A stretch of DNA of 64,000 nt, taken from IMG/VR virus record IMGVR_UViG_3300027712_000017; one strand, given 5' to 3'. Below, piece after piece: positions 3,403 to 8,527 of this stretch; the first letter of the stretch is position 1, and the number at the start of each line of letters is the position of its first letter. This DNA comes from a virus. Its lineage: Duplodnaviria; Heunggongvirae; Uroviricota; Caudoviricetes. The notes under the pieces were generated by a model, which worked only from the letters and a program-made list of their open reading frames with translations, had not been told where the DNA came from and ran no database searches. A program made the translations under genes and the position numbers.

Positions 3403-5010
3403 TTAAGTAAACATTCCGGAATTTTGAAATATAGTTTGTTCAAATACAGTTGCCGCAGGATACGGACTATCAGTTCCTGCGGTAGGATAACCAGTTGTTT
3501 CACTATTATACATGACAGGTTGCGATTGCACAGGTTTTTGTGATTTTGTTTTAGTAGGTGCAACTTTTGCTGCCATAAATGTTTTTGATGACAAATCACT
3601 CAATGTTTTACCTATAGATGATACCATCGAAGATAATGAAGAACCTATTTCACTAATACCACTTAATCCCGTATTTGCTGACATACCTTTGACAGGTTGA
3701 CTGCCATTTAACATACTTTCATGGCTTGAACCTATATTTCCTCCGCCGACATTTCCTACTGTTGTCTTATCATTTTGTGCTGTTTCTTGATTAGGTGGCG
3801 AGTAACTAGCATTTTGAGCGACTGCTGGTGAACTAGTTTGTTGTTGAACTATTCCCGTATTTTTGAAACGAATTACATCTGAAATAAATTTAATTTCATC
3901 TGCTTTTAAAGTTATTTCATCAGTCTTTGAATTTTCATTCATAGAATATGATGTTGGGGATGCTGCACCAAAACTTCTTTGACCTTGAAATCCGGATGGA
4001 GATATAAATTCTCCAATTGATTTCATGTTGCGAAACAATTTATAAAGATCATAAATTGTTTTTAATCCTTTAGCTTCTCCTAAATACGGTACTAGATATG
4101 ATAATGCATTTAACATATCCATTGTAGATAATGGCTGATCACCTAATGCATTATCTCCGACTGCAAGTCCTGGTCCATCTCCTTGATATTTCCACCAATC
4201 TTCAGGTACTAATCCTTGCGAAGCAGCTGCAGGTAACTCACCCGGATGTTCTTTTTCGGGGGGATTAGGATTATTTGCAGGTGTTTGTGGTTCAGGCTTG
4301 AAAATCGGTTTAGCATCTGGTATTAGCGGCTCGGGATTATTCGCAGGTATCAGTGGTTCGCTTGGACCAGGTTTGAAAATTGGTCTAGAATCAGGTCCCG
4401 GCACAGTTATGGGCGGGGTTTCAGGGGCCGGGTTATCTAAAGGTTTAGGAGTCTCTGCTGGCTGTGCAGGTTCAATAACTGGCTCTGGAACAGGTGCGGG
4501 TGCTGTTCCAGGAATAACTGGCTGATCCGCAGGCGCAGGTTCTCCTAATGGTATTGGTTTTGTAATAGGGGGTGCTGCAGGTATAGGTGAAGGTTTTGTT
4601 ATAGGTGCAGGCTGAGCCCCCGGGATTTGTTGCGGCTGTGGCGCAAATATTTCACCAGGAACCGCTTGTCCTTGACGTTGGCCCTGTCTTTGTCTTTGTG
4701 GTTCTTCTTCTTCGTTACCTGGTCTATTTCTTCTTCTTTTTCTTCCATCATCAGATTCATCTTTGCTGTCATCATGATTACAGCAGCAAGGATTCAAAAC
4801 TTTTACAGGTATATAGCCATTATCATCAAAAAATTTGTCTAAATTAGGCATACCGCTAGTTTGATGCTTAAATAGATTTTGATTCTCAGATAAAAAATTG
4901 TAAATTAAATCTAATTCTAATGCAGCATTTTCATTGAAAGCATTTGCTTTCACTAATTGAGAATTAATATCATCAATCTTGTTGCTTAAATTTTCGTTTT
5001 CTTCTTCCAT
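3403..5010 (-). CDS. Pro-rich 535-aa virion-associated protein (hub/tape-measure region), paralogue of 5022-6962
   Basis: Long ORF downstream of gp26/gp51-like; contains PITKP and PIFKP repeats; shares NGYIPVKV(L/I)NPCC with its neighbour. Confidence 0.7.
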   Translation of the reverse strand: MEEENENLSNKIDDINSQLVKANAFNENAALELDLIYNFLSENQNLFKHQTSGMPNLDKFFDDNGYIPVKVLNPCCCNHDDSKDESDDGRKRRRNRPGNEEEEPQRQRQGQRQGQAVPGEIFAPQPQQIPGAQPAPITKPSPIPAAPPITKPIPLGEPAPADQPVIPGTAPAPVPEPVIEPAQPAETPKPLDNPAPETPPITVPGPDSRPIFKPGPSEPLIPANNPEPLIPDAKPIFKPEPQTPANNPNPPEKEHPGELPAAASQGLVPEDWWKYQGDGPGLAVGDNALGDQPLSTMDMLNALSYLVPYLGEAKGLKTIYDLYKLFRNMKSIGEFISPSGFQGQRSFGAASPTSYSMNENSKTDEITLKADEIKFISDVIRFKNTGIVQQQTSSPAVAQNASYSPPNQETAQNDKTTVGNVGGGNIGSSHESMLNGSQPVKGMSANTGLSGISEIGSSLSSMVSSIGKTLSDLSSKTFMAAKVAPTKTKSQKPVQSQPVMYNSETTGYPTAGTDSPYPAATVFEQTIFQNSGMFT

Positions 5011-5021
5011 TTAATTACCTA

Positions 5022-6962
5022 TCAAACCCATGGATTGCGTGCTAAAGTAGCATCGTCAAGCATGTCAAACATATCATGGAACGCAGCCCATGGTTCATCA
5101 ACTGGCGGCGCAGATGATTTAACGTTTATGATTGACGCAGAAGAAACAGCAGGAGCTACTGTCGGTGCCGCCGGAGGTTTATTCAGCTCTAAAGTAGTTG
5201 ATGCTGATTTTGATGCTATATCAGCATGAGGACTTAGTTCATTTGAACTATCTGTTTTTTTAGATACACCTAAATCATCAGGTAATCCGCTCAAATAATT
5301 TAATCTTTGTTGTGTCGCACCTTGAGTATCTGCAGGTCTTTCATATTGTGAAACCAATTTACTGACAATCGACGCAGCATCATCAGTTTTCATGCTTTCC
5401 CATAAACCAGGATAATCTGATTGTATTTCCCATATAGCAGCTTTTGTTTGTTCGGCTACAGTCATATCTTGTGGGTATTTACCGAAATGTTGTTTGATTT
5501 TTTCTGCTCTATTATTATCCCACTGAACAATGCCGTGAGCCATTTGATTCGGATTACTACGAGATGGATCGGCATGTACATCACCAGGTTTACTAAGAGC
5601 TTCACCGGACATATTTGCGACTAATGCTTTTGCAGCTGCGTCATTCAAACCGCTTTCAATAGCTGCTTTGTATGCTTCTGCTTGATTTTCTTTTAGTGAT
5701 CCTGTTGCAACAGTTTTATTGCTCATGTTATATCCGCCGCCATTCATTGGTATAGCAGATTCTTGAGGATTGAATGATACAGTTGATAAATCGCCGCCCA
5801 TACTGCCCCCGTATGAACCCGATGAACCTGATGAAGCACCACTACTCTGATCTATGAACTCAAATTTACCTGCTTCGTATGTGATTTCTTTCGCAACAAA
5901 ATTGATTTTTCTTGCGGTCAATATAGTGTTATCAGTATTATCTTTTGTTATACCGTAGTTACCTAATGCATCATCAGGTTTTTTGTAACTCATATTCTCT
6001 AATATTGGACTATCTTCATCACCAAAAATACTAGGATATTTGCCGCCGCCCACTCCACCTTGTCCGGGCATACCCAAATCTGGCATATTCATCGGTACGC
6101 CACGTCCGCCTCTACCTAAACTTCTATAAGGATTTTCTGCAATACCTTTTAGATTTTCGAACGCAGGTGTTCTACTGGCAGGAGTAGATGATACATTAGG
6201 TTTTGCACCAACCTGTGGGTTTGTATCAGCGGGAAAAATAGGTTTAGGTGAGGTTTCTGTGATAGTTCCCAGAGGTGTTGGCTTATTAATTATCATTACA
6301 GGAGATGCGGGCACAGAATTTTTGTCTGATGTTGCTGGTTGTTCTGCTACTACAGCATTCGGTTGCTTGACTGGATCAGGAACAGATTTTGTTGAAATAG
6401 CATCAGCTGCAGGCATTCCGCCTGTTTTTGCATTTTTTAATCTAGGATCAACTGGTATTGACATTGCATCAGCAGGTGCTGCAACTTCTTCTTCAGCAGG
6501 ATGAAATTTTGAAGCAATATATGCAAGAGCCGGAACAACTGCAGGTATAATATCTGCAAGATATTCTTTGAAACTTTTAGGTTTATCTTTATCTTTGTTT
6601 TTATCTTTATTTGCAATATTGTCTGTTGCAGATTCTTCATCACAACAAGGATTAATTACCTTGACTGGGATGTATCCATTTTCATAAAAATATGTATCTA
6701 AAGATGAGACATAAGGAACAGGTCTCATAGTTTTCAATATTTCATAGATGTCATTTAATCTAATGGCACTATCTTCAGAATAATCAGTCATCCGTTTAAT
6801 TTGTGACGATTGATCAGTTAAACGCATTTTGAATATGCCATATGATTGCGCGTCATATGAATCGGAGACTTTTTCATTCGGGTTTAAAACAGGTTTAGCC
6901 GCCGATGCAGATTTTGCACGGCGGCTTTTTTTATTTTGTGGTTGATTGTTATCGTCTGCCAT
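5022..6962 (-). CDS. 646-aa hub/tape-measure-region protein with a C-terminal phage tail lysozyme-like domain
   Basis: AAKALVANMSGE...AHGIVQWD...EQTKAAIWEI...QYERPAD resembles the Phage_lysozyme2 family; lies immediately after the gp51-like frame. Confidence 0.7.
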   Translation of the reverse strand: MADDNNQPQNKKSRRAKSASAAKPVLNPNEKVSDSYDAQSYGIFKMRLTDQSSQIKRMTDYSEDSAIRLNDIYEILKTMRPVPYVSSLDTYFYENGYIPVKVINPCCDEESATDNIANKDKNKDKDKPKSFKEYLADIIPAVVPALAYIASKFHPAEEEVAAPADAMSIPVDPRLKNAKTGGMPAADAISTKSVPDPVKQPNAVVAEQPATSDKNSVPASPVMIINKPTPLGTITETSPKPIFPADTNPQVGAKPNVSSTPASRTPAFENLKGIAENPYRSLGRGGRGVPMNMPDLGMPGQGGVGGGKYPSIFGDEDSPILENMSYKKPDDALGNYGITKDNTDNTILTARKINFVAKEITYEAGKFEFIDQSSGASSGSSGSYGGSMGGDLSTVSFNPQESAIPMNGGGYNMSNKTVATGSLKENQAEAYKAAIESGLNDAAAKALVANMSGEALSKPGDVHADPSRSNPNQMAHGIVQWDNNRAEKIKQHFGKYPQDMTVAEQTKAAIWEIQSDYPGLWESMKTDDAASIVSKLVSQYERPADTQGATQQRLNYLSGLPDDLGVSKKTDSSNELSPHADIASKSASTTLELNKPPAAPTVAPAVSSASIINVKSSAPPVDEPWAAFHDMFDMLDDATLARNPWV

Positions 6963-6964
6963 CG

Positions 6965-7162
6965 TTATTGAGCACCTGCTGCCATTTTTTGTTTCTCTTC
7001 CAATTCTTCAAGGTATTTCTTGAGCATGTCAAGATAAATATCGCGTTCAAATGGAATCATACTCTCTATATCTTCTAGGGAATATTTATGGTGTTGCAGC
7101 AGCGCAAAATTAATATTATAATAATTTTCTAACGTATTATGATTTAAACTAAGGTAAAAAAA
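6965..7162 (-). CDS. gp51: gp51-like baseplate hub assembly frame not listed in the ORF track; no start codon before its conserved part, probably reached by -1 frameshift from gp26
   Basis: Reads FFYLSLNHNTLENYYNINFALLQHHKYSLEDIESMIPFERDIYLDMLKKYLEELEEKQKMAAGAQ*, matching the short gp51-like motif (HHKYSL..IE.M.P.ER). Confidence 0.75.
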   Translation of the reverse strand, partial: FFYLSLNHNTLENYYNINFALLQHHKYSLEDIESMIPFERDIYLDMLKKYLEELEEKQKMAAGAQ

Positions 7163-7860
7163 TCGACTAACGATGTCATCAGAATTTTTCTTTCTGTGCC
7201 TTTTGAGTTAGTGTATTTTATTTCGTAATTTAAACGTGGCATGTTTAACACAAATTTCCGCATCTTATCGTAAGACAAAGAATCAAATTCATTCTCTAGA
7301 TATTGTTGCAGTTCTGCTTTTGGAACATCACCAATTTCAAATACTTCATCACCCTGGAATATTTTATCGACACAATTAGCGATAAGCATATCAAAATACT
7401 TGTTCATATCAGTTTGAGTGAACTCATCATCAGTCATAAGTGAAGATGGCGCATATTTCATAACAACAACTATGTCATCATTTATTTTAATATTCTTGTC
7501 AATATTTTCGGGAAATTTAACTGAAACTTCATCTAAATTAACTTCAAATTCATATGATTTGTCATCTTCTGAATCTATATAAGAAACCTTAGATATATTG
7601 CTGATTGAGTATGCACGAATCTTAATAAACAAATATTCAATGTCGAAAGTTGTTAAACTATCAATATCAATTTTATCGTCCATGATACAATTATTGACAA
7701 CTTGTCTAACTGCAGTTAATGCGTCTCTAGGATCTCCACCGCTTTTTGCCATAAGAAGTATTTTTTCTTCTTTAACAAGCATAGGACGAATTTTAATTTT
7801 TTTATTTGTTGATGGTATAGTCACATCAAACAGCGGGTGACTAATTTTAGGTAAAGCCAT
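7144..7860 (-). CDS. gp26: Baseplate hub assembly protein gp26
   Basis: MALPKI...IKIRPMLVKEEKILLMA, DIEYLFIKIRAYS and the terminal DFF are typical of gp26. Confidence 0.88.
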   Translation of the reverse strand: MALPKISHPLFDVTIPSTNKKIKIRPMLVKEEKILLMAKSGGDPRDALTAVRQVVNNCIMDDKIDIDSLTTFDIEYLFIKIRAYSISNISKVSYIDSEDDKSYEFEVNLDEVSVKFPENIDKNIKINDDIVVVMKYAPSSLMTDDEFTQTDMNKYFDMLIANCVDKIFQGDEVFEIGDVPKAELQQYLENEFDSLSYDKMRKFVLNMPRLNYEIKYTNSKGTERKILMTSLVDFFTLV

Positions 7861-7879: not shown

Positions 7880-8527
7880 TTATTGTGGTCCTATTACAGT
7901 AGAACCCATATTCGCAGACGAAACAGAAACACTTTCTGAATACCAATCAGTGTATGTAAATGCTACAGGTATTTTCATATAATCGTTTGTATCATTCCAA
8001 TTTAATTGTATGTCACCCATATCAGTAGGATATGCGTCTCTTAATACTACCTTAATTATTTCATCCGTATTCTCTTTAAATACATGAATTGATATATCAG
8101 TTATGTAGTTATCTTTATATGCTAGCTCATATGATCTTGATGAGCCAGTTCCATTAGATTTCAAATTTTTCAAATCGCCATCTCGAACATCAAAATTATG
8201 AATCATTTTTATCCAATTATAAAAGAATGAATGCATGGCACCCTTACTATCACCCATGAACGTCATTGACACGTTATTAAAAGATGAACTAGAAGGCCTT
8301 TTTTCTGTAACACCATAGCCATATCGTCTAATTTGGGTAGTTTGTAGGGAAACACCGGGCAAGTTTGAACTATCACACCATAACTCTACGTATCTTGCTG
8401 TATTTTTAAGATCAGAATTTCCACTAAATCCTACAGGGTAAGGCATTCTTACAAAAAACTTATTGTTTCGTAAAATGCCGTTAGCATTCAAATGCGATGT
8501 GAAATTTGCTATATTAAATCCAGACAT
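7880..8527 (-). CDS. Tail tube-fold baseplate protein (gp54-like tube initiator)
   Basis: FNIANFTSHL...RNNKFFV...CDSSNLPG...FNNVSMTF...AYPTDMGDIQLNW...VAFTY is a tube-family pattern. Confidence 0.7.
   Translation of the reverse strand: MSGFNIANFTSHLNANGILRNNKFFVRMPYPVGFSGNSDLKNTARYVELWCDSSNLPGVSLQTTQIRRYGYGVTEKRPSSSSFNNVSMTFMGDSKGAMHSFFYNWIKMIHNFDVRDGDLKNLKSNGTGSSRSYELAYKDNYITDISIHVFKENTDEIIKVVLRDAYPTDMGDIQLNWNDTNDYMKIPVAFTYTDWYSESVSVSSANMGSTVIGPQ

Follow-up and report, generated by a model that had tools for sequence, protein, structure and literature searches.

How the second reading frame at the end of gene 26 in an uncultured freshwater (lake-water) T4-like phage comes to be translated is the question raised by this locus. 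The window, that is, the whole 64-kb stretch of DNA that was analysed, carries gene 26 on the minus strand at 7144..7860, where the ORF list gives a protein of 238 aa that is assigned, through PF12322 and phrog_150, as the short chaperone form (TAC-N). The minus strand at the end of this gene reads TCG TTA GTC GAT TTT TTT ACC TTA GTT TAA, with the frame-0 stop TAA at 7146..7144, and it contains a run of seven T's (A7 on the plus strand) at 7156..7162. This run forms a putative slippery heptamer, T TTT TTT (U UUU UUU in the mRNA), which is phased as GA[T TTT TTT] ACC in frame 0 and, as an X XXY YYZ motif, is separated from the frame-0 stop of gene 26 by 5 codons. The -1 frame opens after a TAA inside gene 26 (7208..7210, minus strand, 15 codons 5' of the heptamer, seen in the translation and in the survey of relatives), remains open for 65 codons from the first TTT, of which 63 follow the two phenylalanines, and closes with a TAA at 6967..6965. 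Its translation starts FFYLSLNHNTLENYYNINFALLQHHKYSLEDIESMIPFER, and from the first T of the run the full translation is FFYLSLNHNTLENYYNINFALLQHHKYSLEDIESMIPFERDIYLDMLKKYLEELEEKQKMAAGAQ. No ATG, GTG or TTG was found in this frame between the TAA at 7210..7208 and codon 35; codon 35 itself, the ATG at 7060, is the first. The extension (6965..7155, minus strand) is assigned as a gp51-type C-terminal domain (TAC-C) from phrog_634 and from an alignment with T4 gp51; a virtual gp26-gp51 fusion would have 298 aa, and the junction peptide expected from it is ...LVDFFYLSLNHN... The original prediction had described the gene end, the heptamer, the A7 run, the 63 further residues and the start-less opening of the frame, and all of these were reproduced from the sequence and its translation.

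Both frames fall into families of phage proteins. In a Pfam search gp26 was matched over its full length by PF12322 (T4_baseplate, residues 12-235, E 4.8e-49), and in a PHROG search by phrog_150 (E 1.3e-51); a sequence search of the PDB and of NCBIfam found nothing. The 65-residue extension was matched by phrog_634 (gp51, 'baseplate hub assembly catalyst') with an E of 5.5e-26 and also by the last 50 positions, the C-terminal end, of the phrog_150 profile (E 4.7e-9), and judged by these profile scores its match to the gp51 family is far beyond chance. Directly upstream, at 7880..8527 on the minus strand, lies a 215-aa gene of the tail-tube family (PF23849 Phage_TTP_2, E 2.7e-9; phrog_45 'tail tube', E 3.7e-35), and a homologous gene precedes gene 26 in 20 of the 22 related loci that have a complete upstream ORF. 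Downstream, the sequence CAA TAA CG ATG places the start codon of a 646-aa gene (5022..6962, minus strand) two bases past the extension stop; this gene holds the tape-measure position and matches phrog_9570 ('tail length tape measure protein', E 4.8e-18) as well as the tail-lysozyme domain PF18013 Phage_lysozyme2 (E 1.2e-15). Its tape-measure PHROG match is only partial, and for the gene that follows (535 aa, 5010..3403) no PHROG match was obtained. The succession of a tube-like gene, gene 26 with its overlapping second frame and a tape-measure candidate therefore corresponds to the canonical tail assembly chaperone position.

The AlphaFold model of gp26 has a pLDDT of 93. With an exhaustive structural aligner, its residues 1-96 were matched to solved tail assembly chaperones, namely 3fgx (Z 8.2), HK97 2ob9 (Z 7.2) and YqbN 3klu (Z 7.0), each match spanning about 85 residues of this range; Z values of 7-8 are middling by the aligner's own calibration, and the first unrelated structure in the ranking has a Z of 4.2. 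The concordance among the top matches supports the reading that the predicted fold of the gp26 N-terminal domain agrees with that of tail assembly chaperones. A Foldseek comparison of the same model with the PDB returned no match. The C-terminal two-thirds of gp26 (residues ~95-238, window 7144..7580) is confidently modelled and has no clear structural relative; the sole recurring rows in this part are weak matches to the C-terminal domain of Hsp40/DnaJ (Z 3.1-3.8, 46-49 residues). The extension is modelled as a four-helix domain with a pLDDT of 75, and the predicted complex between the extension and the upstream tube-like protein scored 0.00, which is uninformative either way.

The layout of the window was compared with that of related loci in a survey set of 80 IMG/VR contigs, nine GenBank phages (S-PM2, ACG-2014j, P-SSM2, S-SRM01, S-CRM01, Sinorhizobium phiM12, Vibrio phi-ST2, Pelagibacter HTVC008M and Methylophilales Melnitz) and the window, which together give 88 distinct sequences. 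The proposed comparison of gp26 3' ends found T TTT TTN in identical phase in 88/88 distinct loci, with zero entropy at the six T's and with C, T or A as the last base in 72, 15 and 1 of them, respectively. The first T of the heptamer is invariant, although it occupies the wobble position of a frame-0 codon that does not always encode the same amino acid: AGT, TCT, GAT, GCT, AAT and GGT are all used, for Ser (from both of its codon families), Asp, Ala, Asn and Gly. Similarly, the first Phe codon of the heptamer is always TTT, although elsewhere in gene 26 TTC accounts for 25% of Phe codons. Both patterns point to selection on the nucleotide sequence itself. The second Phe codon is TTC in 72/88 loci, as against that 25% elsewhere in the gene, and the run usually consists of exactly six T's. 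In a scripted survey of start and stop codons covering 85 loci (the window, four GenBank phages and the 80 IMG/VR contigs), the frame-0 stop was located 2-10 codons past the heptamer start in 85/85, the -1 frame upstream of the heptamer was open for only 0-21 codons, and no start codon was found in that upstream part of the -1 frame in any of the 85. Variable phase among relatives, or a start codon for gp51 upstream of the heptamer, is thus not what the survey found.

The frame that carries the coding constraint also changes at the heptamer. The most variable codon position is the frame-0 wobble position 5' of the run and the -1-frame wobble position 3' of it, and the switch takes place exactly at the run. 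When the extension was used as a tblastn query, 534 phage records were matched, and every match straddled the end of gene 26, beginning 12-15 bases before its annotated end; the matches come from cyanophages and from Vibrio, Sinorhizobium, Methylophilales, Pelagibacter, Pseudomonas and Caulobacter phages. Mean column identity is 64% in the extension and 49% in gp26. Compared with a 94%-identical phage record (G001), the extension shows 12 synonymous and 3 non-synonymous differences when scored in the -1 frame, whereas the same differences scored in the other two frames give synonymous to non-synonymous ratios of 1:14 and 1:13. By this substitution pattern, the extension is a real protein domain under purifying selection in the -1 frame.

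It is proposed that gene 26 of this phage is a tail (tape-measure) assembly chaperone gene with two products. The majority of ribosomes would read frame 0 to the TAA at 7146..7144 and release the 238-aa short form (TAC-N). A minority, whose P and A sites hold two tRNA-Phe paired with UUU UUU, would slip back by one base on U UUU UUU (7162..7156); both tRNAs would re-pair with UUU, and the -1 frame would then be read for 63 further codons, giving a 298-aa long form (TAC-NC) that ends in the helical domain of the gp51 type. Going by their homology to T4 gp26 and gp51 and their analogy to lambda gpG and gpGT, the short and long forms would act jointly and non-structurally to build the hub and tape-measure core that serves as the base for tail tube growth. 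The original prediction of a 238-aa gp26 and a fusion of ~298 aa from one locus, of the lambda G/GT type, is borne out as far as sequence comparison reaches by the 88/88 heptamers, the gene order and the N-terminal chaperone fold. One gene thus very probably yields a short and a long chaperone by means of a -1 slip on seven U's, and tandem ribosomal -1 slippage on the heptamer is the likeliest mechanism, with a probability of roughly 85%. What we infer here extends to the ribosomal nature of the shift, its efficiency and the binding partner of the C-terminal domain.

It has been reported that heptamers of the U_UU.U_UU.Y type rank among the highly efficient ones for -1 frameshifting in E. coli and that they shift above background without stimulators (PMC4066793). 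As had been predicted, no strong stimulatory structure was found in the window: the 107 nt on the 3' side of the heptamer fold at -9 kcal/mol (z = +0.5), without a strong hairpin, and few stretches of the locus are less structured than the 70 nt that follow the heptamer (98th percentile). The bases from +9 to +75, counted from the heptamer start (window 7155..7085), fold at only -2.9 kcal/mol. No Shine-Dalgarno-like element was found at 7165..7185 in the window, and the 94%-identical relative is likewise without one. Among related loci, a Shine-Dalgarno-like GGAGG, GAGGG or GAGG is located 8-10 bases 5' of the heptamer in 47 of 86; it is encoded by a conserved Leu-Glu-Gly of gp26, and its spacing is as in dnaX. 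Many relatives also have strong hairpins, down to -24 kcal/mol, that start 2-9 bases past the heptamer in differing registers. When each locus was folded on its own, stable hairpins proved only modestly enriched and in a lineage-specific way (25% of loci rank in the top 5%; the median percentile is 0.15), and neither RNAalifold on 83 sequences nor a fixed-register helix scan over the 88 loci found, respectively, a consensus downstream structure or a helix near the heptamer. Because the window has no downstream hairpin and no Shine-Dalgarno-like element, the frameshift efficiency may be low in this phage.

The main rival to ribosomal slippage, although an improbable one, is transcriptional slippage, in which the polymerase slips on the T7 run during transcription and a fraction of the transcripts gain one U, so that normal translation yields the same 298-aa fusion. 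The signal is a pure homopolymer that the invariant first T makes longer still, a single inserted base produces the identical frame change, and the window lacks ribosomal stimulators. The under-representation of UUUUUUU in all frames of E. coli genes, possibly for reasons of slippage (PMC4066793), points in the same direction. However, 72/88 loci hold the run at exactly six T's by means of TTC, against a 75% preference for TTT elsewhere in gene 26, and a run capped in this way therefore fits a heptamer signal better than a signal of the kind 'the longer the better'. Known slippage-dependent genes use longer runs, typically of about 9, which also counts against this explanation. In addition, the stable hairpins that start 2-9 nt after the heptamer in many relatives and the GGAGG or GAGGG 9-10 nt upstream of it in half of the relatives are features of ribosomal sites. 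The contig from an RNA library shows no indel in the run, a weak point because contigs drop rare variants. A narrower version of the same idea confines it to the AT-rich freshwater lineage, in which the stimulators would have been lost and the run lengthened to U7: since the window has no hairpin, no Shine-Dalgarno-like element and a U7 run, polymerase slippage might make the long form here, in part or wholly. If true, the way of recoding at a single conserved site would have changed in one lineage, but this version too is given only a slim chance.

Ribosomal slippage, the preferred reading, has also to be weighed against the view that the locus consists of two independent genes, gp26 and a small gp51 translated from an internal ATG, which in the window would be the ATG at 7060 and would give 31 aa. 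This is how public annotation treats related loci: GenBank and RefSeq list 'gp51' ORFs of 45-60 aa from internal ATGs in S-PM2, P-SSM2, phiM12, phi-ST2, HTVC008M, Melnitz, S-SRM01 and S-CRM01, and position 35 of the extension is Met almost without exception. However, the 34 codons before that ATG in the window, which contain no start codon, are the best-conserved part of the extension; tblastn matches span extension residues 1-43, the -1-frame periodicity runs from the heptamer onward, and 6 synonymous and 2 non-synonymous of the 15 differences from the 94%-identical relative lie before the first ATG. The first possible start ranges from codon 3 to codon 34 among relatives, none of them being conserved, and in T4 gp51 this segment follows a gp26-like domain in a single frame. 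Independent initiation, which is thus very unlikely, was rejected on the conserved start-less 34 codons, the -1 periodicity, the unconserved starts and the in-frame join of T4 gp51.

The last alternative, that T7 is a homopolymer error in a truly in-frame fused gene or that the downstream frame is a dead remnant, could draw on the error-proneness of homopolymers and on a phage known from metagenome assemblies alone, but its probability is negligible and it was rejected, since contigs from three runs (X1, the probable source DNA run; X2, a lake metatranscriptome library; and X3, a run from another study; two DNA studies and one RNA library in all) cover the T7 run identically and without an indel, which therefore excludes a sequencing error, while the 94%-identical record keeps the same run, the two-frame layout is common to 88/88 related loci and the -1 frame is under purifying selection.

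These results bear on the annotation of related phages. None of the nine public records contains a joined, frameshifted CDS, and the ACG-2014j record omits gp51 altogether. Some annotators already name gp26 and gp51 'tape measure protein assembly chaperone'. Hundreds of public records, from cyanophages and from Pelagibacter, Vibrio and Sinorhizobium phages, misannotate 'gp51', either as a tiny stand-alone ORF or by leaving it out. For the phage of the window, the corrected annotation would be one gene with products of 238 and 298 aa.

Among well-known bacterial sites, the -1 frameshift of E. coli dnaX takes place on A AAA AAG, a heptamer preceded at about 10 nt by a Shine-Dalgarno-like element and followed by a hairpin. 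The gene 26 site resembles it in having a homopolymer-type heptamer, and about half of the related loci have an upstream GGAGG or GAGGG and many have a downstream hairpin. In contrast to dnaX, the window has neither stimulator, and the shifted product is the longer one here, whereas it is the shorter one in dnaX.

A conserved -1 frameshift in tail assembly chaperone genes was reportedly described by Xu, Hendrix and Duda in Mol Cell in 2004. The lambda gpG/gpGT pair is alike in its overlapping frames between the tube-family and tape measure genes, in the X XXY YYZ motif near the end of the first frame and in a minor long form that contains the whole short form. The lambda G/GT shift reportedly works without a stimulatory structure, and none would be needed here. 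The two systems differ in the heptamer, which is G GGA AAG in lambda and T TTT TTT in the window, and gp26 has no sequence similarity to the lambda protein. In addition, gp26 is about twice the typical length of a TAC-N protein, and the chaperone fold is confined to its first ~95 residues.

In T4, gp26 (208 aa) and gp51 (249 aa) both belong to PF12322 (E 8.8e-64 and 3.9e-52, respectively). The complete PF12322 domain occupies residues 1-201 of T4 gp51, and residues 200-246 align with the extension of the window at 38% identity (E 1e-7). As the original prediction had suggested trying, T4 gp51 was compared with the whole virtual fusion, and the alignment runs end to end, extension included; T4 gp26 ends in ...EFFELL, much as gp26 of the window ends in ...DFFTLV. 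With its own PF12322 domain and an extension, T4 gp51 is, by its domain content, a whole long form and not a split-off piece, and T4 therefore encodes the short and long forms as two paralogous genes. The suggestion that T4 genes 26 and 51 are the 'de-fused equivalent' of the fusion does not hold for this reason. The two T4 genes are separate and have opposite transcription directions, whereas the window has a single locus with overlapping frames; unlike their counterpart here, they do not lie between the tube gene and the tape measure gene. By tblastn, the 64-kb window contains only one gp26-like and one extension-like stretch, and no pair of complete genes in the T4 style. T4 also has no slippery run, the FF of gene 26 being encoded by TTC TTT and the junction of gene 51 reading GTG TTT AAG (L085, 3803..3830 and 5070..5090). 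Judging from these sequences, T4 is a natural control: with a gene of its own for the long form it needs no shift, and it has no slippery run.

The closest counterpart is the TAC-N/TAC-NC system of other T4-like phages. As reported by papers that cite it (PMC10885494, PMC12846349), the study of Vladimirov, Gautam and Davidson (Virology 2022; 566:9-15, doi 10.1016/j.virol.2021.11.003) identified gp26 and gp51 as chaperones of T4-like phages. According to the PRFect paper (PMC10885494), some T4-like phages do without a frameshift and instead carry two genes, a short one and a long, fused one, and the phage Adele paper (PMC12846349) treats it as known that TAC-N genes of T4-like phages contain poly-T slippery sequences. 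Literature searches by gene names gave no direct report of a gp26/gp51 frameshift, which is known through the papers citing the 2022 study. The device in T4-like phages was thus already published in 2022, and the site in the window is a solid but ordinary new example, whose value is that of confirmation and annotation. As in those phages, the gp26 family provides the short form, and the long form has a gp51-type C-terminal part; the present case differs by nothing in kind, coming from an uncultured freshwater phage whose record is not so annotated. It differs in detail from its relatives, with U UUU UUU in place of the commoner U UUU UUC and without the hairpin and Shine-Dalgarno-like element that many of them have. 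Such a site connects genes 26 and 51, and with them baseplate hub genetics in T4, to the general tail-assembly-chaperone rule of long-tailed phages.
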